From Planctomycetota bacterium (GTDB lineage: Bacteria; Planctomycetota; MHYJ01; WSZJ01): a stretch of 64,000 nucleotides of DNA. Positions within the stretch are counted from its first letter, which is position 1, and each line of letters opens with the position of its first letter. Both the position numbers and the translations under genes were made by a program. Below, piece after piece: positions 31,715 through 44,597 of this stretch. The DNA lies in assembly GCA_038060895.1 (NCBI GenBank), contig JBBTCT010000002.1, positions 160,001 to 224,000 on the forward strand, written 5' to 3'. Under the pieces are notes generated by a model. It did no database searches, had not been told where the DNA came from, and saw only the letters and a program-made list of their open reading frames with translations.

Positions 31715-32620
31715 TTACTTCAGCACCCGCCGCCCGGCCCGCCGCGCGCCCTCCTGGCTCCGCTCGACGAAGAGCTCGAATAACTCGTGAAGCGGCCGCG
31801 CCGCTTCCGCGCCCTCGAGGCGCTCGACCGCGTGCGCGATCGACTCGAGCGTCGCCATGCCGAAGGAGGGCCCCGTGCGGAGGCGCGCCGTCGGTGGATG
31901 CGGCGGCAGCGAGAGCCGTGGAAGGTGCTGCAGCGCGGGCACGCGCAGGAACATCCGCTTCGACTCGCGCCACGTTCCGTCGATCACCACGACCGTCGCG
32001 GGCCCCGGGGCACCCTCCGGGAGCGGATCGGCCCCGGGGTACAGGACCCACGCCCCCGGCGGCGGCTCGAATTCCATCCGGCTGTCCCGCTCGGCCCTGT
32101 CAGCCAGCTCGCAGTTCGTCATCGCCAGCGCCGCAATCCGCGCCGAATTCGTGCGGCGCCGCGACTCGTGCTCGTGGCGCAGAATGACGAAGCGCGTCCG
32201 GGTCTCGATGCGCCTGACGTCGCCGCAGAGGCACAGCGGCAGATCCAGGCGGCACCGCTCGCAGATCGGAGGCGTCGCCGCTACGCCGGCGCGCCGCCAC
32301 TTCTCTGCCAGGCGCTCCAGCGCCGCGGTCTCGCCGGCCTGAAGGAGAAGCGACGCGCCCCGCGCGTGGCACTTCCGCGCCTCGTTGATCTTCCCCAGCT
32401 CCAGCAGTGCCGCGCCGAATTCTCCCAGGCGGAGGCCTTTGAGTCGCAGCGCCGCACCGCGCGTCGCGGGCGGTTCCGTTGAAGCGGGTGTCCGCCGTCC
32501 CAGGAGGTCGTCCAGCAGCGACTGCGCGTGCGCGAGAAGTCGCGCGCGCTCCGGCGAAATGCGGTCGTCCGCGGCGTCGAGCAGGGGAGGGTGTCGAAGC
32601 GGATCGGGGGCCCGGTTCAC
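31715..32620 (-). CDS. DTW-domain tRNA-uridine aminocarboxypropyltransferase (TapT-like) with an N-terminal TPR-family-derived extension
   Basis: CxRC...CLC, HxxExxxxTNS, IDGTW, ATLE motifs; GTG 32620 overlaps the GNAT stop. Confidence 0.85.
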   Translation of the reverse strand: MNRAPDPLRHPPLLDAADDRISPERARLLAHAQSLLDDLLGRRTPASTEPPATRGAALRLKGLRLGEFGAALLELGKINEARKCHARGASLLLQAGETAALERLAEKWRRAGVAATPPICERCRLDLPLCLCGDVRRIETRTRFVILRHEHESRRRTNSARIAALAMTNCELADRAERDSRMEFEPPPGAWVLYPGADPLPEGAPGPATVVVIDGTWRESKRMFLRVPALQHLPRLSLPPHPPTARLRTGPSFGMATLESIAHAVERLEGAEAARPLHELFELFVERSQEGARRAGRRVLK

Positions 32621-33150
32621 GGGCGCGTTGTCCCCAGCGATATCCAGTACCGCCGCTTCCGCACGGCCTGGCCGGGCACTTCCACCGTGTTTTCCAGCAC
32701 GCCGCCGCAGGACTCGATAACTTTCCACGAGCCCACGTTGTCGTCGTCGCACGTCAGGAGAAGCCTGTCGATCCCGCAGGCGCGGACGAGCGGAAGAGTC
32801 TGCCTCAACATCTCGCGGGCGTAGCCTCGCCGGCGGAACGAAGGGACGACGCCGTATCCGACGTGGCCGCCGATGCGAAGGAGGAAGTCGTTCAGGCGGT
32901 GGCGAAATGAAACCCGCCCCACCCCGGCGCCGTCCACGACCCCGACGAGAAACGTGCTCGGGACGTAATTCTCGGGCAGCTCTTCGCCGCGCGTCCAGGC
33001 GGCCAGCCTCCGGACGTACGCCGGGAAATCGGTCACCCCGTCGAAGAAAAACGCGAAAGCCCACTCGGGATCGGAGACCCTGAACTCCTCGACGGCCTTT
33101 CGAAAGGAGGGCTCGTCGGAATCGGTCAGTTCGCGAAGCACCAGGGGCAA
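32617..33150 (-). CDS. GNAT N-acetyltransferase
   Basis: RHRLNDFL..GGHVGYGVVPSFRRRGYA, LLTCDDDNVGSWKVIESCGG; AGGAG RBS then TTG. Confidence 0.9.
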   Translation of the reverse strand: MPLVLRELTDSDEPSFRKAVEEFRVSDPEWAFAFFFDGVTDFPAYVRRLAAWTRGEELPENYVPSTFLVGVVDGAGVGRVSFRHRLNDFLLRIGGHVGYGVVPSFRRRGYAREMLRQTLPLVRACGIDRLLLTCDDDNVGSWKVIESCGGVLENTVEVPGQAVRKRRYWISLGTTRP

Positions 33151-33287
33151 GAAGGGGATTCTCCTGAGAAACGAGCGCGGGCACGGAACAGTCTCGCTTG
33201 AGGCGCTCCGGAATTGAAACGAATAGACGGAAGGCCGGAGTCCGCGGCCTCTGCGGCAACAGCCCGGGCGAAAGACGCTTCCGTCGC

Positions 33288-34700
33288 TCAGCCGGTATTC
33301 CCATCGAACGCCGTCACGGAAGCCTTCGCGCACGCCGAGCGCATGTCACCGCGGAGGCGCTCAACTTCACCGGCGTCGCCCAGGCCCACGAGGATCGCGA
33401 AGTTCTCGCGCCAGAGCGCGGAGGCTTCAGCGACCAGTCCCCGCGCCAGGAGGCACAGAGCGAGCGCGCAGCCGTGGCTTCCCTCGGAATTCCTGTTCCT
33501 CACCACCCGGTGCAGGACGAGGGCGCTTTCCAGGAAGCGCTCCGCGAGGTCCGGCCGGCCGGAAGCGAGATGCAGCATGCCCATGTGTCCCAGGGCGATT
33601 CCCTCGAAGCGGCGGTCGCCGACGTCGCGGTAGATCGGAAGCGCCTCTTCGTACGTCCGCAGGCTCTGCGCGATGTCGCCCCGGGCGTTGTGCAGGAACG
33701 CGCGCAGGCCCAGGCAGTATCCCTCGGATCGCCGATGGCCGGTCCGGCGGTGAATATCGAGCGCCTGCGCGCAGGTCCGCTCGGCCAGTTCCATCCGGCC
33801 GAGTTGCGCGTACAGGCTGGCCAGGCTGCCCACGATGACGCCCTCCGAACGGAGGTCCCCTGTCTCGCGGAAATACGCCACCGTCTCGAGGTAGGTCTGT
33901 TCCGACAACTCGAGCCGGCCCGTCTGCCGGTACAGGCTCGCCGCGTTGACGAGCGTCGAAGCCGTGTACTGGCGGTCACCGACTTCGCGCAGGATCGCGA
34001 GCGCCTGGTCAAAACTCCTCTCGGCCTCCGCCAGCCGCCCGGTTTCTTCGTACAGGACCGCGAGCGCGCCGAGGTCGATCCCCTCGGAGCGCCGGTTGCC
34101 GACGCTCCGGTGAATCTCAATCGCCCGCCGCAGCATTTCCTCCGCTTCCGGCATCCGTCCCGCAGCCTTCTGCCGCCCCGCGAGGTCGCCGAGCGTCACA
34201 CCCTCCCGGCGCACGTCCCCGCTCCGACGAAACTGCTCCAGCGCTTCCTTCAGCAGATCCACAGATTCCTGCGTTCTGCCGAGGGCGTAGGCGCTCAGCC
34301 CGGCGCGGCGAAGCGACTCGGCGCGGTCCGCCTCGACGGCGATCGCGGCCAGTTCTTTCCAGAACGTGCAGCCTGCGTCGAGCCGCAACGAAGCATCCGC
34401 GGTCTCAGCGGCGCGGCGCAGGTAGGCGACGAGCGCGCCGCCGTGCCCGTCGACGGATGCGCCGGACCGGCGCAGGTGCGCGACCAGCTCTTCCGCGAAC
34501 GGATCCGTCGCGTGTTTCGGGAAGAAGGGAGGCGCCGCACAGTTCAGCGGAGGTGGCTCGGGCGGGCGGCCTCCCGCGAGCGCTTCGATCGCCTCAAAGG
34601 CATGGGCATGAAGCCGCGCTCGGTCGCCGGGGAGCTGGAGCTGGTACGCGGCGTCGCGGAGAAGGGCGTGTCTGAAAATGTAGGCGTTTTCGGCGTGCAG
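33288..34700 (-). CDS. Stand-alone STAND-derived WHD/arm plus TPR protein (family copy 4), CTG start
   Basis: Frame extends upstream of the track's TTG to CTG-HAENAYIFRHALLRDAAYQLQLPGDRARLH; TAAACT 7 nt upstream; no ATG/GTG/TTG before the upstream stop. Confidence 0.8.
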   Translation of the reverse strand: MHAENAYIFRHALLRDAAYQLQLPGDRARLHAHAFEAIEALAGGRPPEPPPLNCAAPPFFPKHATDPFAEELVAHLRRSGASVDGHGGALVAYLRRAAETADASLRLDAGCTFWKELAAIAVEADRAESLRRAGLSAYALGRTQESVDLLKEALEQFRRSGDVRREGVTLGDLAGRQKAAGRMPEAEEMLRRAIEIHRSVGNRRSEGIDLGALAVLYEETGRLAEAERSFDQALAILREVGDRQYTASTLVNAASLYRQTGRLELSEQTYLETVAYFRETGDLRSEGVIVGSLASLYAQLGRMELAERTCAQALDIHRRTGHRRSEGYCLGLRAFLHNARGDIAQSLRTYEEALPIYRDVGDRRFEGIALGHMGMLHLASGRPDLAERFLESALVLHRVVRNRNSEGSHGCALALCLLARGLVAEASALWRENFAILVGLGDAGEVERLRGDMRSACAKASVTAFDGNTG

Positions 34701-34857: not shown

Positions 34858-37158
34858 ATGCGGCTTAGCAGGCTCTGGACGGCGCTCGTGGTAGTCGCAT
34901 CTGTGTCATGTGGCAAGAAGTCCGAGCCGACGCCCGCAGTGCCACCAACGTCCCCCTTGGTGCCGTCCAAACCAGTTTCTACGGCAGCGAATTTCGCCAA
35001 TGAAAGTGCGGCGCTGCTGAAAGTGGGGATTGAGAAACGGTTGGCTGGCGATCGGAAGGGATTGATTTCCGCGGCGGAGTCACTTCGATCCTTGTCGGCG
35101 CAGGCCGCCGAGGCGCGTCCCGCCGATCCGCTGCCGGACCTGGCCCTGGCGCGGATGGCGAGGGTGACCGGCGACGCAGAGGCGGAGCGGGCCGCGCTGG
35201 CCGCAGCCGAGCGCAAGTCACCCGGGAGCCCGGCCGTTGCCGATGAACTCTTCCTTTCGACGTTGGTCGACGCATGCGCCGCCGCGGCGCAGCAAGCGCT
35301 GCAGGCGGAGGTCGAAGAGTGGGCTTCGTTCGTTCTGGAGCAAGAGCCCGGTCATGTGCGGCCGCGCCCCGAAAGACCGCCGGCAGCACCTGCGGCGCTC
35401 CGTGAGGCAGTGACCGGAGTGCCCGCACTTGCGGCCGCGCTGAAGGCCTTCGCGGCGGGCGACCTCAAGGAGGCGGCGAGCCGGTCCGCCGCCGCCGAGC
35501 GCGAGATGCTGCCCCCCGACCCGGCGACGGCGCTGCGATTGCTGGCGGGCGACGCGATCGTGGGGAACCTTGCGAACGATCGGCTCGCGGCCATTCGCAC
35601 CTTCGTCGAGGCGCGCGCGTCATTCCAGGGAGGAGTCCTCCTGGCGCCAGAGGACGTGCTGAAACAGCGCGAAAAACTCACTTCCTTGCCGGCGGAAATT
35701 CGGGCTCTCTTGTCCGCGGCTGCGGCCGCACGGGTGCTTTCACTGGACGCGCCGGGAGACACCGAAGCGCTTTGGAGAGTCGGGAACGTCGCACTGAGGG
35801 CATTAGCAATCAGCAGTCTTGCCGCGTCGCCCTGCACGCCTCCCGACAAGGGAGTTCCTTTGGCTGAGAAGGCGCTGGGGGACCTTCGATCCAGCAAGGA
35901 GTTGCTCGCAAAGGACCCGCGCTGCCTCATGGCGGAAGGTGTCCTGCTCCTGCGGCTTGCTGAAATCGAACCGGCAGGTCCAAAGCGGCGCGAGCGTGCC
36001 AAGGCCTGCCTCTCCTGGGCGGAGGCCGCGTCCTCCAGCCTGAAGACGCTTCACAAATTTGTCGAGTTGCGCGCCATGTCACGGCTCCTGGTCCGCGAAT
36101 TCATGTGGACAGACGCGCCAAAGTCGGTGATCGACGAAATGCGCGCAGCTCGTGTCGCCGCAGCGAAGGAGACGAGTGAAGAATTGCTGAAGTCTCCCGG
36201 CTGCACGGCCTGTCTGACGATCAGGTCGTCCTCGCGCAGGTGGACTGATCCGGATCGCGTGTTCGACGATGTTCTTGAAGCGCGTAAGGGAGGCGCCGTG
36301 GCGCTCGATCATCTGCTGGAGAGCGCCAGGGGTCCCGGCGTCTACAGGGGCAGGACGCCGTCGACGGAAGACGAAGCGCGAAGCCGGAGAAGTGCCGCGG
36401 AAACCCTCCTCCGAATCCGTCCCGAGACATGGACCTCGCACTACACCCGCATGCAAGCGCTCGTGTTCGGAACCCTCTTCTGCAGAGCCTTCCCAATTGA
36501 AGAGGCCACGAAATTGGCATTGGAGAACCTGTCGGCGGGAACCGCTGCTGCTGGAGAGGAGAGTGTCGAGGTTTTCCTCTTGCTGGTGCGCCTGATACCG
36601 CTGCCTCCCCCGGAATCTCCTCGCGATCGCGCGGAGGCGCACCAGGTCCCCCTGGCGCGCATCGACGAGATGCTGGCGAGTCACCCTGAGAATTACGGTC
36701 TGATCCTGATGCGCGGGCGGTTCCAGCGGGAGGGCGCGGCTCTTCTAAAGGAAGTTGCAGACGACGCGCCGCACCTCTCGGCCGCCATTCGGGACCTGAC
36801 TCGCGCTGCGGAGCTTTCGCCGCGCGCGCTCAGGCCCTGGGAGGAGTTGGGCGCTCTTCGTCACATGCAGGCGCAGGCAATTTCTGGAGGCGCGCTGCGT
36901 GTACCAAAGCTTGAGCAAGCCGCCGCTGCTTACGACGAGGCCGTCAAGCGAGCCCCCTCTCTGGCGCCCCTCCGGGACACTCTCGGAGACGTCAGGAACG
37001 AGCTTTACACGATCAAGCACCGCTTGGGCAAAGAGGATTCGAAGCTCATGCAAGCGGCCATCGATGACTGGAACGCAGCGGCGTCCCTTGATCCGCTCCT
37101 CAGGTCAATCGTTGAAGCCAAAATCAAAGGCATCCAGGCGGAATCCCGAAAGAAATGA
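34858..37158 (+). CDS. Large helical/TPR lipoprotein
   Basis: Lipobox VSCG, Pro-rich linker, TPR-like C-terminal helices (AAELSP, AVKRAP, AASLDP). Confidence 0.7.
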   Translation: MRLSRLWTALVVVASVSCGKKSEPTPAVPPTSPLVPSKPVSTAANFANESAALLKVGIEKRLAGDRKGLISAAESLRSLSAQAAEARPADPLPDLALARMARVTGDAEAERAALAAAERKSPGSPAVADELFLSTLVDACAAAAQQALQAEVEEWASFVLEQEPGHVRPRPERPPAAPAALREAVTGVPALAAALKAFAAGDLKEAASRSAAAEREMLPPDPATALRLLAGDAIVGNLANDRLAAIRTFVEARASFQGGVLLAPEDVLKQREKLTSLPAEIRALLSAAAAARVLSLDAPGDTEALWRVGNVALRALAISSLAASPCTPPDKGVPLAEKALGDLRSSKELLAKDPRCLMAEGVLLLRLAEIEPAGPKRRERAKACLSWAEAASSSLKTLHKFVELRAMSRLLVREFMWTDAPKSVIDEMRAARVAAAKETSEELLKSPGCTACLTIRSSSRRWTDPDRVFDDVLEARKGGAVALDHLLESARGPGVYRGRTPSTEDEARSRRSAAETLLRIRPETWTSHYTRMQALVFGTLFCRAFPIEEATKLALENLSAGTAAAGEESVEVFLLLVRLIPLPPPESPRDRAEAHQVPLARIDEMLASHPENYGLILMRGRFQREGAALLKEVADDAPHLSAAIRDLTRAAELSPRALRPWEELGALRHMQAQAISGGALRVPKLEQAAAAYDEAVKRAPSLAPLRDTLGDVRNELYTIKHRLGKEDSKLMQAAIDDWNAAASLDPLLRSIVEAKIKGIQAESRKK

Positions 37159-37262
37159 GCCGGCCCGGGCGCGTTACGATGCACTTGCCGGACCTTCGGC
37201 GAATGTGCAGGTATTTCGCGCGGACGAAGAAACTCACGGATACGTTCAAGAGGAAGATCTCC

Positions 37263-38228
37263 ATGCGCACGGCCACATTGCTGTTCGCCCTCGCTGCCTT
37301 CGCCCGCGCCGAATCCGCGCCCGAAGAACAAACGCTTCGGGATTCGACCGATTCCATCGTGAAGAGCGTCACGAGCATGGATCTCGAAAAGGTCGCAGGC
37401 GCATTCTCGAAGGACGCCGTCGCCTGGCTGGAATCTCCAGAGGGAGCTGCCGCGTACAAGCCGTACCTCGACGACTCCGACAATTGCGCGCACCTGCTGC
37501 GGATGAAAAGGGCTGAGGTCAAGAAGCTGGCCCCCGCGGCGTTCGCGAAGCGACTCGCCGCCGGATTCGTGGCCATGGATCCCGAGACGACGTCCAAAAT
37601 GGCGTACCTCAAGTTCCGCGCCGACGGCGCCGAACGCGTCGTCCAGGTCGAGTCCACCGACCCGCTACGCGGCACCGGCCGCGGACACTACCGCTTTGTG
37701 CTCGACGGCGGCGCGTGGAAACTCACGAAGTCCTGGGTGTCGCGCCTTCATGAAATGTACGTCTGTCGCAGCCGGATCATGCAGGTCGGGATCTACCTGG
37801 CCCTGTATGAATCCAAGGAGAAGGACTACCCGGGTGACATCGAGGGGCTGAAGCGTCCCGACCTGATTGAGAAGGGAAAGGACGACGTGCTCGCCTGCCC
37901 CCAATCCCGCGAACCCTACGTCTACCTGTTTCCCCTCGAGGGTGATGTGACCCCGGGGGGGCGCTTCATGCTCTACGACAAGAAGCCGCACGCGGACGGG
38001 ACGCGAATCGTTGTTCCGTTCATGGGCGCCGGCGCCTGGCTGGACGAGGCCCAGTTTCAGGAGGTGCTGCGCAAGGATCTCGACGCGATCCAGGCAAAGC
38101 TTCCCGAGATTGAGAAGAAGGTGCAGGCCGGGCTCAGCGACGCGGATGCGAAGAATAAGGCGGCTGCAGAGAGGTGGCAAAAGGGGTTGTCCGGCCTGCG
38201 GAGCGTCATCAAGGGCGCCGGGAAGTAG
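37263..38228 (+). CDS. Secreted protein: NTF2-like N-domain plus DUF1559/pseudopilin-like C-domain
   Basis: GAGGA RBS, signal peptide; FVLDGGAWKL; CxSxIxQxG..L..Y...YP...L...CP...Y.Y...H.DG pattern. Confidence 0.55.
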   Translation: MRTATLLFALAAFARAESAPEEQTLRDSTDSIVKSVTSMDLEKVAGAFSKDAVAWLESPEGAAAYKPYLDDSDNCAHLLRMKRAEVKKLAPAAFAKRLAAGFVAMDPETTSKMAYLKFRADGAERVVQVESTDPLRGTGRGHYRFVLDGGAWKLTKSWVSRLHEMYVCRSRIMQVGIYLALYESKEKDYPGDIEGLKRPDLIEKGKDDVLACPQSREPYVYLFPLEGDVTPGGRFMLYDKKPHADGTRIVVPFMGAGAWLDEAQFQEVLRKDLDAIQAKLPEIEKKVQAGLSDADAKNKAAAERWQKGLSGLRSVIKGAGK

Positions 38229-38296
38229 TGTCCGACGTCCCTATCTCCCGCCGCTTCGCATCGGCGGGCCGTCGTCTTGGATACAATGTGCTGAGC

Positions 38297-38548
38297 ATGC
38301 TCTCGCACAATCTCGACATCCCTGAAGATGCCCTCAAAGCGGTCCAACTCGATCCGCAAGCTGCTGCCGCGGACGTGCGTATCGCCGCGGCCATGAAGCT
38401 CTTTAATATGGGCCGGCTTTCTTCGGGTACAGCGGCGCGCCTCGCCGGCGTTTGTCGAGTTGAGTTCCTCGACCGCCTCGCCGAGTTCGGTGTGAACGCT
38501 TTCGACATGACCGAGGATGAACTCGCCTCCGACTGCGGTAATGTCTGA
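38297..38548 (+). CDS. UPF0175-family putative antitoxin (orphan)
   Basis: RIAAAMKLF..GRLSSGxAARLAGVxRxEFL..L..FGV; TACAAT -10 at 38282-38287. Confidence 0.85.
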   Translation: MLSHNLDIPEDALKAVQLDPQAAAADVRIAAAMKLFNMGRLSSGTAARLAGVCRVEFLDRLAEFGVNAFDMTEDELASDCGNV

Positions 38549-38762: not shown

Positions 38763-40586
38763 ATGCCGACACCTCAATCCTCCCGCAAACGCGTCTCCTG
38801 GACGGCAGCACTCGTCGTCAACGAGATTCGCAAGTTGCGAGAGCGCAGGATTTCTCCTTCTCAATCCTACGTTGTCGGGAATCACCCGGCGTTGTATGGG
38901 GCAGCCCAACGCCTGCTCGGCGGCTGGCGCAATGCACTGATTGCTGCCGGAGAGGAACCCGCGAAAGTAGCTCGGGAGTCCCGAGACGTCTCTAACGCGA
39001 CGCGCACCAAGTGGACGCACGACTTCATCATCAAGACCCTTCAGGAGCGAGCGAGGCTTGGGAAACCACTCAACTTCCTGAAAATGAGAGATTCTGGATT
39101 CGGGGGATTTCTTCGGGCCGCGGCCCGCGTTTTCGGGAGCTACGAAGCTGCAATCCGTGCAGCCGGTCTCTCATACGCCTCGATCAAGAGAGGAACCGAC
39201 TGGGTCTCAAATCCAGAGAAGGCAATTATCGGGGGCATTCGCGAACTCGCCTCTGCTAAGGTCGAGCTCAACATCAGTTCGGCGCAACATCACAGGTCTG
39301 GCCTGGTCACGGCAGCGATTACGCACTTCGGGTCGTGGGACTCCGCGCTTGTCGCAGCGGGCTTCGACCCCATAAACACACGGCTCGACCTCGACACTGA
39401 GGCGGGGAAGGGGCGTATTTTCCAGAATCTCTGCTACGACCTCTTCCAGGTGCTCCGTCCAAAATGGCGAGACGACCACCGCTGCAAGACCACGACAGGA
39501 GTGCTCCTCCCGGACGCTTACGACCCCGATACGCGCGAGTGGATTGATTTCAAGATTGCAGCATGGGGCATGTCCGTCCAGAAGAGCATCCGGAAGTACA
39601 GCGGATACGCTGACCACCTGCGATTGATCTGTCTGGCCGGACGGCGCAATTCAACCGAGCGCGTAACGTTTGAATCGATATTCGACTACGAAGGGGAGGC
39701 AATGACACCGACCCTACGCACGCTCTTTGAGAGAATGCGGTGCTTGGCAGCACACGACGTGCCGACGACCAGCTTCGAGGAGTGGGCGACACGCTGGACT
39801 CGCAGGGAAGTGATTCAAACCATCCAGAATCTTCCTCCGGACGAGCGCCACTCTCGGCACGCCCAACTTCACAACAAAGGAGCGTACAGCGCTGCAGTGC
39901 GGATGTTCGGTGGATGGTACGCGGCTGTTGAGGCGTCCGGCTTCGACGTAGAAGATGTGAGACGCCGCCGACCGGCATACACCAAGGGGGATGTTGACGC
40001 GTTCATCTCTGGTCGCTCCAGCTCCGGTCTTGGGCTGAGCGCGCGTGTCGCCACTGCAACCGCATCGGGCAGTGGTCTCTATCAGGCTGCGAGCCGGTTC
40101 TATGACAACTGGGCAGCCGCCCTCGCCGCAAATGGCCTGAAATACGACGACGTAAAACTGAAACCTGGACGCGAGCGATTCACAAAACAAGTCCTTGATC
40201 GCTTCATTCGCACGCGACACAACGCCCGCGAGAGATTGAACGCGACGACGGTTCGCGATCAGTTCAAGGGCGAGTATGGAGCGGCGTTTCGCATTTATGG
40301 CGGTTGGCGCCAAGCGGTCGAAGCAAACGGCATTTCATACCGTTCGGTCTCCGAGATCGTTCCTCCAAGACGAGTGACCCAGACCGAAGTTGATGCGTAT
40401 ATCCGGTCTCGGTCTCAGACAGGACTTCCACTGAACAGCCGCGCGGTGTGTCGGGACGACCGCCCGATTCACACAGCAGCATGCCGACGCTTTTACGGCA
40501 GCTGGAGCAACGCTTTGAAGGTCAATGGCATTGACTACGACACTGTCACGCTTCGCAGGAGGAGAAACCCACGGAGCCCTGGGTGA
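38763..40586 (+). CDS. Multi-repeat putative DNA-binding protein with a central PD-(D/E)XK-like nuclease domain
   Basis: Seven ~50-aa repeats ending (F/L/Y)GxW..A(L/V).A(A/N/S)G (homing-endonuclease-associated-repeat-like); central LLPDAYDPDTREWIDFK...SIRKY; atypical A/T-rich codon usage. Confidence 0.7.
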   Translation: MPTPQSSRKRVSWTAALVVNEIRKLRERRISPSQSYVVGNHPALYGAAQRLLGGWRNALIAAGEEPAKVARESRDVSNATRTKWTHDFIIKTLQERARLGKPLNFLKMRDSGFGGFLRAAARVFGSYEAAIRAAGLSYASIKRGTDWVSNPEKAIIGGIRELASAKVELNISSAQHHRSGLVTAAITHFGSWDSALVAAGFDPINTRLDLDTEAGKGRIFQNLCYDLFQVLRPKWRDDHRCKTTTGVLLPDAYDPDTREWIDFKIAAWGMSVQKSIRKYSGYADHLRLICLAGRRNSTERVTFESIFDYEGEAMTPTLRTLFERMRCLAAHDVPTTSFEEWATRWTRREVIQTIQNLPPDERHSRHAQLHNKGAYSAAVRMFGGWYAAVEASGFDVEDVRRRRPAYTKGDVDAFISGRSSSGLGLSARVATATASGSGLYQAASRFYDNWAAALAANGLKYDDVKLKPGRERFTKQVLDRFIRTRHNARERLNATTVRDQFKGEYGAAFRIYGGWRQAVEANGISYRSVSEIVPPRRVTQTEVDAYIRSRSQTGLPLNSRAVCRDDRPIHTAACRRFYGSWSNALKVNGIDYDTVTLRRRRNPRSPG

Positions 40587-40639
40587 TCGATGCCCATGGC
40601 CTCTTGATCCACCGACGCCCGCTCGATATCCTCATACAC

Positions 40640-40867
40640 ATGAAACGTACAAATCTTGTGCTGAGCGAAGACCTGCTCAATGAGGCAACCCGCCTCTCGG
40701 GAGCGAAGACGTATTCGGGCACGGTCAATATGGCGCTTCGCGATTTCGTTCAGCGCATCAAAGCGCGACGCATCCTGTCGCTGACCGGATCCGGGCTCTG
40801 GGAGGGTGATCTGGCGGCCATGAGAGGGGACCGGCCGCGCCGGCGCGCGCGGGGAGCGGGCCGGTGA
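40640..40867 (+). CDS. vapB: VapB-family antitoxin
   Basis: MKRTNLVLSEDLLNEAxRLSGxKT..xVNxAL...WEGDL; overlaps vapC; TATCCT 7 nt before ATG. Confidence 0.88.
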   Translation: MKRTNLVLSEDLLNEATRLSGAKTYSGTVNMALRDFVQRIKARRILSLTGSGLWEGDLAAMRGDRPRRRARGAGR

Positions 40868-41253
40868 TTCTCGTCGATGCCTCCGTCTGGATCGAGACCT
40901 TCCGGGCGCGCAAGCCGCTCTCGATCGAATCGGTTCTGGAGTTTGACGAGATCGTCACCTGCCTCCCCGTCGTCCAGGAAGTCCTCCAGGGCTTTCGCGA
41001 CGAGCGCGCATTTCGCATCGCGAGAGAATCGCTCCTGGCGCTGCCCATCGTCGAGTCGCCCATCACGGCCGGACTGGCCGAGGAGGCCGTGGGTCTCTAC
41101 CGGGCCGCGCGACGGCAGGGAGTGACCGTGCGCTCCTCCGTCGATTGCCTCATCGCCGCGTGCGCGTTGCGGCATCAGCTTACCGTCCTGCATCGCGATC
41201 GGGACTTCTCTCAGCTTGCGCGAGTGTCGCCTCTGCAGCAGCGGAGCCTGTAG
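40864..41253 (+). CDS. vapC: VapC PIN-domain ribonuclease toxin
   Basis: ILVDASVWI, QEVLQG, DCLIAA, LHRDRDF acidic PIN tetrad. Confidence 0.92.
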   Translation: MILVDASVWIETFRARKPLSIESVLEFDEIVTCLPVVQEVLQGFRDERAFRIARESLLALPIVESPITAGLAEEAVGLYRAARRQGVTVRSSVDCLIAACALRHQLTVLHRDRDFSQLARVSPLQQRSL

Positions 41254-41375: not shown

Positions 41376-41861
41376 TCAGACTTCTCCGGCAAGGCGAATC
41401 GCTTCATCGAGCAAGGCGTCGTCAATGAAGAACCCGTTGGTCTTCAGTTCGAGAAGGCGGTCTTTGACCGAGGGGACGAGCCCGCGCTTCTTGGCAAGCA
41501 ACAACACGCCGACAGTACCCCGGACCGGAAGCCCGAAACTCCTGGCGCAGCGCCGCGCGGGGGCATCGTCGAGAATGACCTCGGCCACCGGCGTTACCAG
41601 CGCCAGGGCGATGACGGACGACTCTCCGGCACCCAGGCCCCACGCGTGTATCGCGGGCGCAATCTCGGGTTCCGACGCGCGGTCGCCCCACTTGGCCTCG
41701 ATGAGCCGGCGCGCCGGATCCGAGGCGTTCCCGGCCAGAATCTCGCGGACAACCGCCTCCGGGACGATCACCCTGCCGCTCAACTTCGCCAGGAGGTCCT
41801 GCAATCCGATCGCGGCAAGCGCAATCAACGGCGATGCGTTGACGATCCGCACGTCAGCCAC
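41376..41861 (-). CDS. DUF3368 PIN-like putative toxin
   Basis: NASPLI, PEAVVREI, LGAGE, ILDD...AR, GTVGVLLxAKxxG. Confidence 0.9.
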   Translation of the reverse strand: MADVRIVNASPLIALAAIGLQDLLAKLSGRVIVPEAVVREILAGNASDPARRLIEAKWGDRASEPEIAPAIHAWGLGAGESSVIALALVTPVAEVILDDAPARRCARSFGLPVRGTVGVLLLAKKRGLVPSVKDRLLELKTNGFFIDDALLDEAIRLAGEV

Positions 41862-42105
41862 GTGACGCTTCTTCCCTCAACTCCGCGGGATCAGTCTGGA
41901 ACGGCGACACGCCGAAGCGACCCAGCGCCTTCATGAAATCGGCGCGGCTCAGTCCCGCGACTTCCGCGGCGCGCTCCTGCGACATCTGGCGCATTTCGTA
42001 CCACTTGACGGCCGCGGCCAGCCGCAGTTCGCGACCAAAGCCGCCCGGATCCTGCCGCACGGAAGGCAGGAGGCTCTCGTCGAAATCGAGGGTCACGCGC
42101 GTCAT
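41854..42105 (-). CDS. UPF0175-family putative antitoxin
   Basis: ELRLAAAVKWYE..MSQERAAEVAGLSRADF; TGcTAGAAT extended -10 6 nt before ATG; 8-nt overlap with toxin. Confidence 0.9.
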   Translation of the reverse strand: MTRVTLDFDESLLPSVRQDPGGFGRELRLAAAVKWYEMRQMSQERAAEVAGLSRADFMKALGRFGVSPFQTDPAELREEASRG

Positions 42106-42286: not shown

Positions 42287-42655
42287 TTACCAAAGGTAAA
42301 CTGATCGTACTGAGGGATGGGCGCGCAGGCTCTCCAAGATTGGAATGCAAGCAGTGTCATAGCCGCCAACGAGTCGCATGGAATGGTCAAAGTCAAACCA
42401 ACCACTCCACCAGGTCGTCTGCCACTCGATATTGGATTCCTTCACGGGCATGGCCTCCAGGATGAGGTCACGGATCTGTCCAACCGTCATTTCCAATTCA
42501 AGATTGGCGGGATTCTCACAGAATTCCTGTCTCAAGATGATCTCAGATTCATGAAGTGCATGAACTAGCAGGTACCACTCACTGGATTCCTGCTTCCACC
42601 CAGCCGATACGGCTTTGATGATGTCCCGGGCGACGCGGTCAGGACTCACGCTCAT
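42287..42655 (-). CDS. Hypothetical protein, lower GC
   Basis: GAGGT RBS; 122-aa ORF with atypical codon usage. Confidence 0.55.
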   Translation of the reverse strand: MSVSPDRVARDIIKAVSAGWKQESSEWYLLVHALHESEIILRQEFCENPANLELEMTVGQIRDLILEAMPVKESNIEWQTTWWSGWFDFDHSMRLVGGYDTACIPILESLRAHPSVRSVYLW

Positions 42656-42685: not shown

Positions 42686-43528
42686 TCACCGGTCTAGACG
42701 CGGTGGTTCCTTCACAATTCGAACATTCTTCGGGTGCGAGTAGATGTTGAATTGCTGGGCGGAAGCGAAGCCGACCAGGGTGATCCCGGCGCGTTCGGCG
42801 AGGTCCACCGCGAGCGACGACGGCGCACCGACGGCGACAAGGGCGGGAAAGCGTGCGGCGGCTGCTTTCTGGACGATTTCGAAGGAAGCGCGGCCGCTGA
42901 CGGCGAGAAGAACCGGGGCATTCAGCGAGCGCGAATCGAGCAGGAGCCCGACGACCTTGTCGACGGCGTTGTGGCGCCCGACATCCTCCGCGGCGGCGAG
43001 GAGTTTCCCGGAAGCGTCGAGGGCGGCGGCGGCGTGGAGGCCGCCGGTTTTACCGAAGGAGGGCTGGGCGGCGCGGAGAAGGGAGGGGGCGCGTGCGATG
43101 AGCGCGGCGGGGATCGGCGCGGCGTCGCGGGCGCGGCCGACGCGGTCGATGAGGTCCTGGACGGAGAAGCGGCCGCAGACGCCGCAGGCGGAAGTGGTGA
43201 GAGTGCCGCGGCGGGTGGCGGCGGGGTGGGCGTGGCCGGCGCGGAGGCGGATGCGCGCGACGTTGCCGCGAGGTTCGATGACAACCGTCGCATCTGCTGC
43301 GGAGCCGATCAGCCCCTCCGCGAACAGGAACCCCATCACCATCTCGCGCTCGAGCCCCGGCGTGCGCATCGTGACGGCGAGCGGGCGGCCGCCGACGCGG
43401 ATCTCGAGCGGCTCCTCGACGGCGACGGCGTCGAGCTCGGGTTTCGGCGCAGCGCGGCCGACGCGGACGCGCCGGACCGCGCGGGCCGTGACGGGCTCGC
43501 GGTCCGGCGGGAGGGCTTTTTTAGCCAA
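42686..43528 (-). CDS. fdhD: Formate dehydrogenase accessory sulfurtransferase FdhD
   Basis: EEPLEI, TMRTPG, GFLFAEG, SACGVCG, TGGLHAAA, EDVGRHNAVDK, SGRASFE, APSSLA; TTG start overlaps the upstream stop. Confidence 0.95.
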   Translation of the reverse strand: MAKKALPPDREPVTARAVRRVRVGRAAPKPELDAVAVEEPLEIRVGGRPLAVTMRTPGLEREMVMGFLFAEGLIGSAADATVVIEPRGNVARIRLRAGHAHPAATRRGTLTTSACGVCGRFSVQDLIDRVGRARDAAPIPAALIARAPSLLRAAQPSFGKTGGLHAAAALDASGKLLAAAEDVGRHNAVDKVVGLLLDSRSLNAPVLLAVSGRASFEIVQKAAAARFPALVAVGAPSSLAVDLAERAGITLVGFASAQQFNIYSHPKNVRIVKEPPRLDR

Positions 43529-44597
43529 GACAGCTGGCTCCCTGCATGACGCGCTGCGCCAGGACGCCGAGCGTAGCCTTGTCGTCGCCGCGGATTTCCT
43601 TGAGGGCGCCGGTGAGGAACGCGCGGGCGGTCTTGCGGCGCCAGGCGGCGGCGAAGTCGGTGTTGTCGAGCGGGCGGGCGTGGGCGGAGGCTTTTTCGGC
43701 GAACTCCTCGATGGCATCATCGGAGAGTTTTTTCCCGAGAAGCAAGGCGGTCTCCTGCACCTCGAGCGGCCGCGACGTCACCGCGCCGAGCACGACGCGC
43801 GCGTCCTCCACTTCTCCCGATTTCGCAAATCTCACCGAGGCCGCGACCGACAGCACCGGGAAGTCGAACGATCCGCGGCGGCGGAGTTTCCAGTACGTCG
43901 ACTTCGCGCCCTTCGGAGCCGGCACGCGAATGCCGGTGACGATCTCGTCCGGCGCGCGCTTGAGGTAGTCCATGCCGTCGTCGTGGTAGAGCGCGGTGAT
44001 CGGGATCTCGCGCTTGCCGCGTTTCTTCGAGACCAGCGTGACCGTCGCGCCCAGCGCCATGAGCATCGGGCCGCTGTCCGTGGACGACACGGCCCAGCAG
44101 CGGTCGCTTCCCGGCGCGACCCAGCAGGTCCCGTGCTTGCCTTCAGTGATCGCCGTGCCGTTCGGGCCGGGCGCCTTCATGCAGAAGCTGATCGACTGCC
44201 GCCACTCGTGGTTCTGGTTGTAGTAGTTGCAGCGCGTGTCGACGCAGAGGTTGCCGCCGAGCGTCGCGGTGGCGCGGATGAGCGGGGAAGCGATGCTGCC
44301 GATCGCGCGCGCGAGACCCGGCCAGTTCGCGATGGCTGGGTCGAGAGCGAGGTCTGCGAGCGTGGAGCACGGCCCGATCGTCGCCGCGCCGTCGCTGCCG
44401 ATCGACACGCCTCGGAGGTCGTTCGCCTTGCGGAGCGACACCAGCACGTCCGGCATGAACTGCCGGCGCTTCAGGTTCGGCACCACGTCCGTCCCGCCCG
44501 CGAGCACCATGGCCTTCGGCCCGACGTCGGCGAGCACCGAGGCCGCATCCGCAGCCGACGTCGCAGCGTGGTACCTGAACGACGGGCATCGCATCAT
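43521..44597 (-). CDS. XDH-family FAD subunit with [4Fe-4S] insertion (4-hydroxybenzoyl-CoA reductase beta-like)
   Basis: AGGTD, ATLGGNLC; HcrB-type Cys insert RCNYYNQ...FCMK...CWV...RCWA; KLRRRGSFDFP. Confidence 0.88.
   Translation of the reverse strand: MMRCPSFRYHAATSAADAASVLADVGPKAMVLAGGTDVVPNLKRRQFMPDVLVSLRKANDLRGVSIGSDGAATIGPCSTLADLALDPAIANWPGLARAIGSIASPLIRATATLGGNLCVDTRCNYYNQNHEWRQSISFCMKAPGPNGTAITEGKHGTCWVAPGSDRCWAVSSTDSGPMLMALGATVTLVSKKRGKREIPITALYHDDGMDYLKRAPDEIVTGIRVPAPKGAKSTYWKLRRRGSFDFPVLSVAASVRFAKSGEVEDARVVLGAVTSRPLEVQETALLLGKKLSDDAIEEFAEKASAHARPLDNTDFAAAWRRKTARAFLTGALKEIRGDDKATLGVLAQRVMQGASCLG

Follow-up and report, generated by a model that had tools for sequence, protein, structure and literature searches.

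A candidate stand-alone DNA endonuclease with a PD-(D/E)XK-like core set between two arrays of homing endonuclease-associated repeats, carried as island cargo in a Planctomycetota bacterium

A stretch of 64,000 nucleotides from a Planctomycetota bacterium (contig JBBTCT010000002.1, positions 160,001 to 224,000; hereafter the window) contains a gene, P0001, coding for a protein of 607 amino acids in which a central domain of 140 residues (residues 204–343, the core) is preceded by three and followed by four helical repeat units. The explanation that we favour, and to which we give somewhat better than an even chance, is that this protein is a stand-alone DNA endonuclease, targeted by its repeat arrays and carried as cargo of a genomic island. 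It is probably a cutter of long DNA sites without self-targeting, residing on mobile DNA. The gene is full length, shows no stops, and is present as a single copy in its own genome, where a whole-protein search found only the gene itself. The coordinates of the gene, its parts and the neighbouring toxin–antitoxin (TA) genes are collected in Table 1.

The sole Pfam family recognised in the protein was PF18780 (HNH_repeat, "homing endonuclease associated repeat"), which matched in four stretches and scored 75.1 bits (E 5.5e-21), the gathering cut-off being 26. This agrees with a preliminary description of this DNA, which had named the repeats as homing endonuclease-associated and had counted seven units, three before and four after the central domain. 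The count was borne out by a repeat hidden Markov model (HMM), iterated over the family proteins and then rebuilt from 212 units of the distant proteins P0018–P0067 only, which found exactly seven units (residues 13–65, 84–138, 153–203, 345–395, 406–461, 474–526 and 540–592) with scores of 29.5–52.2 bits, the maximum over 200 shuffles of the protein being 2.6 bits. This HMM was seeded from the window protein's own units and hence is not wholly independent, while the Pfam model is. When the own genome was scanned in six frames with PF18780, no matches were obtained and even the gene itself was missed; being insensitive for single units, this search has no bearing on paralogues.

The units were 18–31% identical to the first one and shared the skeleton W-T...I...L...AA.R.FG.W..AL.A.G with only three invariant columns, and they appear to be old duplicates. 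Orthologous units were conserved unit by unit (45–63% identity to the query), and the variability among orthologues was spread over many unit positions, with no small hypervariable set. An array of the transcription activator-like effector (TALE) type was rejected on account of the low identity between units, the three invariant columns and the lack of a TALE-like hypervariable pair or code. In the full-length model each unit, of about 55 amino acids, folded confidently into a four-helix bundle with an additional short helix. The mean predicted local distance difference test score (pLDDT) of this model was 80.6 and its predicted template modelling score (pTM) 0.36, with pLDDT below 50 at the linkers 336–342, 466–472 and 532–534 and at both ends. 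As modelled, the chain is a string of beads of undefined overall shape. Units R1, R2, R6 and R7 had isoelectric points (pI) of 9.3–11.2, R3 and the core were acidic, and the inter-unit linkers and the tail were basic (RRRRP, KLKPGRER, PPRR, and the tail RRRRNPRSPG).

Structure and profile comparisons of the arrays gave leads only. R3 resembled the helix-turn-helix (HTH) domain of a TetR protein (2hyt_A; Z 4.9, 54 residues, 3.0 Å) and R5 a segment of SauUSI (Z 4.5), both weakly. Atlas neighbours of R5–R7 were PF18780 clusters accompanied by HNH (58–100%), HNH_5 (97%), HNH_2 (14%), GIY-YIG (51%, viral) and ROS_MUCR (16%) domains. The N-terminal array matched phrog_22655, of function unknown, in PHROGs (E 2.6e-11), where the core had no match, and the seven-unit repeat profile gave chance-level matches only against PDB sequences. 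PF18780 is tabulated among repeat families without known structure in a paper on repeat modelling (PMC8078820).

A word-indexed search with residues 200–345 yielded, among 84 candidates, 16 proteins including the query, with core identities of 55–71%; all 16 carry PF18780, and the six that have source names are all called "hypothetical protein". Most invariant columns of the 16-protein alignment fall in the core, among others E213, K216, G217, R218, P250, D251, D254, E259, W260, I261, D262, F263, K264, R277, K278 and Y279. Conservation persisted in a 65-row alignment of the wider family, where D251, K264 and Y279 were each found in 64 of 65 rows, W260 and G217 in 63, P250 in 62 and D262 in 61, three further rows having Glu at the last position. 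The strings GKGRIFQ (residues 215–221), LLPDAYDPDTREWIDFK (248–264) and SIRKY (275–279), quoted in the preliminary description as marks of a PD-(D/E)XK-like domain at 39400–39700, are indeed present and span about 39405–39599 of the window.

Modelled alone with AlphaFold2 and the 65-row alignment, the core reached a pLDDT of 90.0 and a pTM of 0.82. The model consists of a helix (213–231), strands 252–254 and 259–266, a helix with K278 and Y279 (270–279), strands 285–292 and 301–305 and two helices, that is, an alpha-beta-beta-beta-alpha-beta topology, and the full-length model gives the same elements. In the core model P250-D251 lies at the entrance of strand 252–254 and D262-F-K264 in the middle of strand 259–266. 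By the textbook, the PD-(D/E)XK motif has its Asp at the start of one strand and (D/E)-x-K within the next. Thus the model and the conservation both support the earlier assignment of a PD-(D/E)XK topology with D...D-x-K on the expected strands.

Exhaustive structure comparison of the core gave 47 chains with Z of at least 5. After re-alignment the top chain was AF1548 (1y88_A; Z 8.0, 3.3 Å, 102 residues), followed by Bax1 (6.8), EcoRII-C (6.5), PspGI (6.4), Can2 (6.4), McrBC (6.1), BglII (6.1), BsaWI (6.0), Bse634I (5.8), a NucS-type enzyme (5.8) and FokI (5.0). Going by titles, we counted 27 restriction enzymes, endonucleases or nucleases among the 50 chains listed, and we take most of the others (Card1, CdiA-CT, SSO0001, R2, SduA, Avs4 and SfsA) to have the same fold. 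Residues 208–326 of the full-length model gave the same neighbour list. In Foldseek searches of PDB with the core model, the best rows were the endonuclease Bax1 (E 7.3e-3, probability up to 0.98) and the influenza PA endonuclease. With the full-length model nothing was found in PDB at E ≤ 0.001, as expected for a beads-on-a-string model of such low pTM, and the search against BFVD returned two uncharacterised Siphoviridae proteins (E 2.7e-4 and 4.2e-4, TM about 0.14–0.17). Since the Z scores are middling, the fold call rests on the topology, the near-invariant motif placement and the one-sided neighbour list, and on no single match. Taken together, these results assign the core, as modelled, to an unannotated family of the PD-(D/E)XK superfamily. 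A prediction of a two-copy core complex with the 65-row alignment scored 0.00 in two runs without controls, and says nothing on dimerisation.

The core family is rare. An exhaustive HMMER search of 1.84 billion cluster representatives with the core gave 53 clusters at E ≤ 0.001, 16 at ≤ 1e-10 and four at ≤ 1e-30; 51 of them are credible, since P0036 and the WD40 protein P0061 match over no more than about 40 residues and fail the core HMM. A search of 60 relatives, seven of the same genus included, did not find the core, and a five-row core profile detected it in one of 400 other genomes of the phylum. Family members were found to be modular, as had been proposed from the window protein, with differing numbers and positions of units. 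PF18780 was detected by Pfam in 41 of the 54 members scanned. The 3+4 layout was present in 12 of the 65 core proteins, which are the close relatives of the window protein, most other close relatives being N-terminally truncated metagenome fragments; about 30 of the 65 have one to nine units, all N-terminal, and a C-terminal nuclease, and the remaining ones show other split forms, e.g. 3+2, 4+3 or 1+4. In P0050 and P0066, two N-terminal units and the core are followed by a Sigma54_DBD domain (E 3.4e-13 and 9.4e-14) that replaces the C-terminal array. The presence of this promoter-DNA-binding domain in place of an array is our best argument that the flanks of the core bind DNA. We infer DNA binding by the PF18780 units from this domain swap, from their company with HNH and GIY-YIG domains and from the basic character of the arrays.

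When a quick tree was built from the core, one group of 28 (SH-aLRT, Shimodaira–Hasegawa-like approximate likelihood ratio test, 81) took in 27 of the 35 rows with split arrays. The architecture label required five to six changes on this tree; shuffled labels needed about 21, none of 500 shuffles being as low, and well-supported branches force at least two changes. This clustering indicates that the layout is inherited, yet has changed more than once.

All examined loci of the family lie among TA or mobile-element genes, and the gene is cargo of mobile or TA-rich islands. In the window it is flanked, as had been noted before, by TA modules that Pfam identifies as UPF0175, VapB/VapC-PIN and DUF3368/UPF0175. 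Two loci of relatives (L035 and L037) have an HTH-ImmA/IrrE gene and a DUF4411 gene upstream, the former locus being followed downstream by an alpha/beta hydrolase gene and one for an IS30-type transposase, and a third one (L036) contains Fic/AbiEi, an excisionase-type HTH protein and a tyrosine integrase. The fourth, G063 (L055:8903-10552), codes for a core relative with a C-terminal Sigma54_DBD in place of repeat units, and is located in an integrative element that also codes for a tyrosine integrase, a DUF3987/CHC2 primase-helicase, two DDE transposases and a resolvase fragment. In addition, a gammaproteobacterial metagenome-assembled genome (MAG) contains a decayed copy (L001:10001-11221), whose pieces were found by tblastn in three frames and which lacks residues ~247–288, that is, the PD...DxK motif.

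The nuclease gene has a GC content of 0.588 and a GC content at third codon positions (GC3) of 0.655, versus a GC content of 0.661 for the window and a GC3 of 0.72–0.82 for the neighbouring genes (VapB, VapC, DUF3368, FdhD and a gene for a 357-amino acid protein). The composition of the gene, whose codon usage was earlier described as foreign, is thus atypical, but only moderately and not dramatically so. Synteny with two genomes of the same genus extends from FdhD (42686–43720) rightwards with 76–89% amino acid identity and ends at about 42.7 kb; five genomes of the same genus contained at most paralogues of the genes to the left of this break.

Based on these results, a mechanism can be proposed. 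D251, D262 and K264 would be the catalytic residues of a one- or two-metal phosphodiesterase site, completed by an acid of the first helix, either E213 or the residue at position 221. The catalytic domain would be tethered on both sides, by short, basic and flexible linkers, to independently folding four-helix PF18780 modules. These seven modules would be the DNA-holding part of the enzyme, laying the chain along a long duplex much as the beads-on-a-string DNA-binding regions of HNH and GIY-YIG homing endonucleases do, and the single active site, placed between the third and the fourth unit, would cut within the bound stretch. The enzyme may nick as a monomer or cut both strands as a dimer. 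A long and rare site would spare the host genome without methylation, and for this reason neither a methyltransferase nor an immunity partner would be needed. Because the gene is cargo of mobile or TA-rich islands, a role in genetic conflict is suggested, either as a free-standing selfish nuclease of the homing type or as a defence nuclease against mobile elements. While the repeats, the core fold and motif, the conservation, the rarity, the modular relatives and the island contexts are results of the analysis, we infer the DNA substrate, the arrays as targeting device, the long site, the cut between the arrays and the biological role.

Several results weigh against this interpretation. Regarding the fold, Foldseek found no PDB match to the core model at E ≤ 0.001, and Z scores of 7–8, of which the core reaches at most 8.0, are according to the tool's own warning common for models without a true relative. 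The active-site call derives from the positions of E213, D251, D262 and K264 along the modelled helix and strands, and Q221 could weaken or abolish catalysis. By sequence, the core had no match in Pfam, NCBIfam or PADLOC and could be linked to no named nuclease family, and PDB sequences gave chance-level matches only with the whole protein or the 65-row core profile (best E 0.03–0.54, repeat-profile query included). Membership of Mrr_cat was rejected: the core had no match to PF04471 at E ≤ 1 with hmmscan, and when hhalign was used to compare the 65-row alignment of the core with 22 natural Mrr_cat domains, the probability was 3.7% (E 0.011), in sensible registers (F-E of Mrr on F220-Q221, and I-Q-A-K on I-D-F-K). 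Concerning the substrate, RNA-binding proteins of the RAP type that have the same fold and helical repeats, namely FASTKD4 and two mitoribosomal proteins, are among the neighbours (Z 5.1–6.1), and no experimental support for DNA binding by PF18780 was found in the literature searched. A homing life style is unsupported, as neither an intron, an intein nor an att-like repeat was found to mark the nuclease gene, and the viral contigs, phage records and plasmid records searched yielded no relative. Finally, the contexts are few, with four independent loci besides the window, of which L035 and L037 probably represent one element.

Among the other explanations, the one that retains most weight, unlikely as we consider it, is a non-specific toxin or abortive-infection effector, which would degrade DNA indiscriminately once activated; the arrays would then be sensors, protein-interaction or autoinhibition modules, and regulation, or a neighbouring antitoxin such as the orphan UPF0175 protein encoded upstream, would keep the host from harm. 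The position of the gene among TA modules, with this orphan gene 215 bp away, is what such an effector would lead one to expect, as are the ImmA/IrrE-DUF4411 and Fic/AbiEi modules adjoining relatives and the presence of defence effectors among the structural neighbours (Can2, Card1, NucC, SduA and Avs4). However, no neighbour is conserved across the five contexts (the window, L035, L036, L037 and G063), UPF0175 being upstream in the window only; the protein has no PADLOC match; and the swap of an array for the sigma-54 DNA-binding domain argues for flanks that bind DNA. If the protein were an ordinary toxin of this kind, its interest would be reduced to that of one more island cargo gene.

We consider it very unlikely that the protein is an RNA-directed enzyme or an RNA-binding protein, in the manner of RAP-domain proteins (FASTK, OPR/HPR-RAP) or of cap-snatching endonucleases. 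RAP proteins likewise join a helical repeat array to a PD-(D/E)XK-like domain, and the FAST-RAP module of FASTKD4 (Z 5.1), two mitoribosomal helical-repeat proteins (Z 5.9–6.1) and viral cap-snatching endonucleases (Z 5.0–5.2; Foldseek E from 1.2e-2 upwards) were all retrieved with the core. These RNA-related neighbours, however, score no better than DNA enzymes. RAP proteins are described as eukaryotic and as acting on RNA, whereas the repeat family of the window protein is a different one and no RAP or FAST match was found by Pfam at E ≤ 1. Moreover, its repeats accompany DNA endonuclease domains (Atlas leads), its relatives carry a sigma-54 DNA-binding domain, and its context is mobile DNA and not RNA metabolism.

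The first helix raises another alternative, of similarly low probability: a catalytically dead DNA binder, e.g. an island repressor or a partition-like factor, inactivated by a change of Glu to Gln at position 221. The protein has F-Q-N where the family has the motif F-E-N/K, position 221 being Glu in 49 and Gln in 10 of the 65 rows, and the decayed copy in L001 shows that members of the family do decay. The preliminary description was right that a Glu of the first helix is Gln here, but it overlooked E213 at the start of the same helix (213–231), which is Glu in 44 of the 65 rows and invariant in the 16 close relatives. In these same 16 proteins position 221 is E in 11, Q in three, G in one and D in one, whereas D251, D262, K264, E213, K216, G217 and R218 are all intact and invariant, and the open reading frame (ORF) is full length. 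Such free variation indicates that position 221 is not a constrained residue in the close clade, where either E213 would serve the metal site or the helix acid would be dispensable. On the sequences available, the pattern at position 221 thus speaks against a recent inactivation.

The preliminary description had reported no methyltransferase nearby, and none was detected: there is no DNA methyltransferase among the ten largest ORFs of 26–52 kb, the own-genome matches to PF01555, PF00145 and PF02384 are all outside the window (the nearest about 194 kb off on the same contig), and the L035, L036, L037 and G063 contexts contain none. Type II restriction-modification was rejected, since no cognate methyltransferase accompanies the nuclease. 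A modification-dependent, Type IV-like restriction enzyme cutting only foreign-modified DNA would account for that lack, and McrBC, SauUSI and Mrr-type domains are among the weak structural or Atlas neighbours (leads), but with no sequence relation to Mrr_cat, no modified-base reader (SRA, YTH, EVE or winged-helix Mrr-N) by Pfam and no NTPase partner, this is the least probable of the explanations considered.

An array-targeted DNA endonuclease would have its closest counterparts among the HNH and GIY-YIG homing endonucleases of the I-HmuI and I-TevI type, which also combine a small nuclease domain of low specificity, flexible linkers and a string of helical modules, and which carry PF18780, the same repeat family, or NUMOD-type DNA-binding strings. 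In contrast to these, the catalytic domain here is of the PD-(D/E)XK type and is located inside the array (3+4) and not at one end, and the gene lies outside introns, inteins and phage genomes. To our knowledge, the one characterised PD-(D/E)XK homing endonuclease is I-Ssp6803I. In a paper that also describes the nuclease domain of I-TevI as modular, I-Ssp6803I is presented as a small single-domain enzyme, encoded in an intron setting, that acts as a tetramer on a 23-bp site, and it resembles the window protein, as far as that account goes, in its restriction-endonuclease fold, in the long target that we propose for the latter and in the lack of a methyltransferase (PMC3384342). The window protein differs from it in being one chain with seven accessory modules and no intron, and no sequence similarity between them was detected. 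A third comparison is with FokI-type Type IIS enzymes, zinc-finger nucleases (ZFN) and TALE nucleases (TALEN), in which a recognition module or array is likewise joined to a separate PD-(D/E)XK cleavage domain; about 30 relatives have just this order, with the array N-terminal and the nuclease C-terminal, and FokI is a structural neighbour (Z 5.0). Here, however, the units are divergent, there is no methyltransferase partner, and the nuclease is embedded between two arrays.

What has been found is an unannotated nuclease family with a putative targeting module, an embedded split-array form and a sigma-54-domain swap, and no new principle. Its interest is that of a rare restriction-fold domain, without a Pfam, NCBIfam or PADLOC model, that has repeatedly been combined with arrays of helical modules. 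Modular nucleases for long sites that need no methyltransferase are raw material for genome-engineering tools and players in the conflict between mobile elements and hosts; the embedded 3+4 layout would fix the position of the cut relative to the recognised sequence, and knowing what a single PF18780 unit recognises would give an annotation to thousands of "homing endonuclease associated repeat" proteins at once. A bolder proposal, which we regard as unlikely, is that the window protein is the type member of an undescribed class of single-chain, bipartite DNA endonucleases with one module per subsite. Each unit of PF18780 would recognise a few base pairs, both arrays together would hold an asymmetric site of ~30–40 bp, and the embedded restriction-fold domain would cut between the arrays. 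In this class the modules could be recombined to change the target, because the number of units (0–9) and their position (N-terminal only or split) have been shuffled and an array has been exchanged for a sigma-54 HTH. If true, nature would have a compact equivalent of the ZFN and TALEN designs, and homing or defence nucleases a seventh structural solution. The interest would grow markedly should the units prove to read DNA in a way that is predictable and recombinable.

Table 1. Parts of the nuclease gene and of its surroundings, with positions in the window.
Feature	Position	Strand	Characteristics
Nuclease gene P0001	38763..40586	+	Uninterrupted ORF, 607 aa; protein pI 10.15
R1, residues 12-66	38796..38960	+	PF18780; 52.2 bits; pI 10.2; helices 15-27, 34-40, 42-52 and 55-61 in the model
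R2, residues 83-138	39009..39176	+	45.4 bits; basic, pI 10.6
R3, residues 146-203	39198..39371	+	51.4 bits; acidic, pI 5.8; adjoins the core; FGSWDSAL motif; best Pfam stretch 183-202
PD-(D/E)XK core, residues 204-343	39372..39791	+	Predicted from the core-only AlphaFold2 model, conservation counts and structural neighbours
D251	39513-39515	+	Start of strand 252-254
D262	39546-39548	+	In strand 259-266
K264	39552-39554	+	In strand 259-266
R4, residues 344-397	39792..39953	+	42.7 bits
R5, residues 405-462	39975..40148	+	29.5 bits, lowest of the seven; follows the basic linker RRRRP
R6, residues 472-529	40176..40349	+	42.5 bits; most basic unit, pI 11.2
R7, residues 537-594	40371..40544	+	46.6 bits; followed by the basic disordered tail RRRRNPRSPG (pLDDT <50 at 598-607)
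Orphan UPF0175 antitoxin-type gene	38174..38548	+	PF03683, E 1.8e-22; 215 bp upstream of the nuclease gene
VapB antitoxin/VapC PIN toxin pair	40583..41253	+	Directly downstream; PF09957, E 2.8e-12; PF01850, E 5.3e-18
DUF3368 (PIN-like)/UPF0175 pair	41376..42105	-	PF11848, E 1.2e-13; PF03683, E 2e-21

Some further observations were made on the surroundings of the gene. The Pfam match of the orphan UPF0175 protein begins at residue 49, so its true start is probably downstream of 38174. No DUF3368 partner or remnant, which would have pointed to an insertion into a TA pair, was found beside it by tblastn (best E 0.69). On the other side, the VapB ORF (40583–40867, +) has a listed GTG start that overlaps the stop codon of the nuclease gene; its Pfam match begins at residue 21, beside an internal Met, so that the real start is probably at ~40640 and the overlap may be unreal. 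Searches for flanking direct or inverted repeats and for promoter-like and terminator-like sites gave nothing above chance. Beside FdhD, at the synteny break, an ORF for 122 amino acids (42287–42655, -) has the lowest GC content of the region (0.523, GC3 0.610), and it had no match in Pfam, NCBIfam, PADLOC or PHROGs. At 34858–38228 (+), a gene for a 766-amino acid protein that Pfam does not recognise and that was not found in any of five same-genus genomes overlaps by four bases the gene for the 357-amino acid protein, which has only paralogues of 29–44% identity in those genomes; these results indicate that the strain-specific region reaches well to the left of the TA cluster.

Repeat proteins of the PF18780 type without this nuclease core are frequent in MAGs labelled as Planctomycetota, Verrucomicrobiota, Lentisphaerae and Bdellovibrionota; in none of 30 such loci (L002–L031) did tblastn find the core. 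Further to the left in the window, an ORF for 528 amino acids (31715–33304, -) has ~340 N-terminal residues without family match, followed by a C-terminal DTW domain of 170 residues (E 3e-32).

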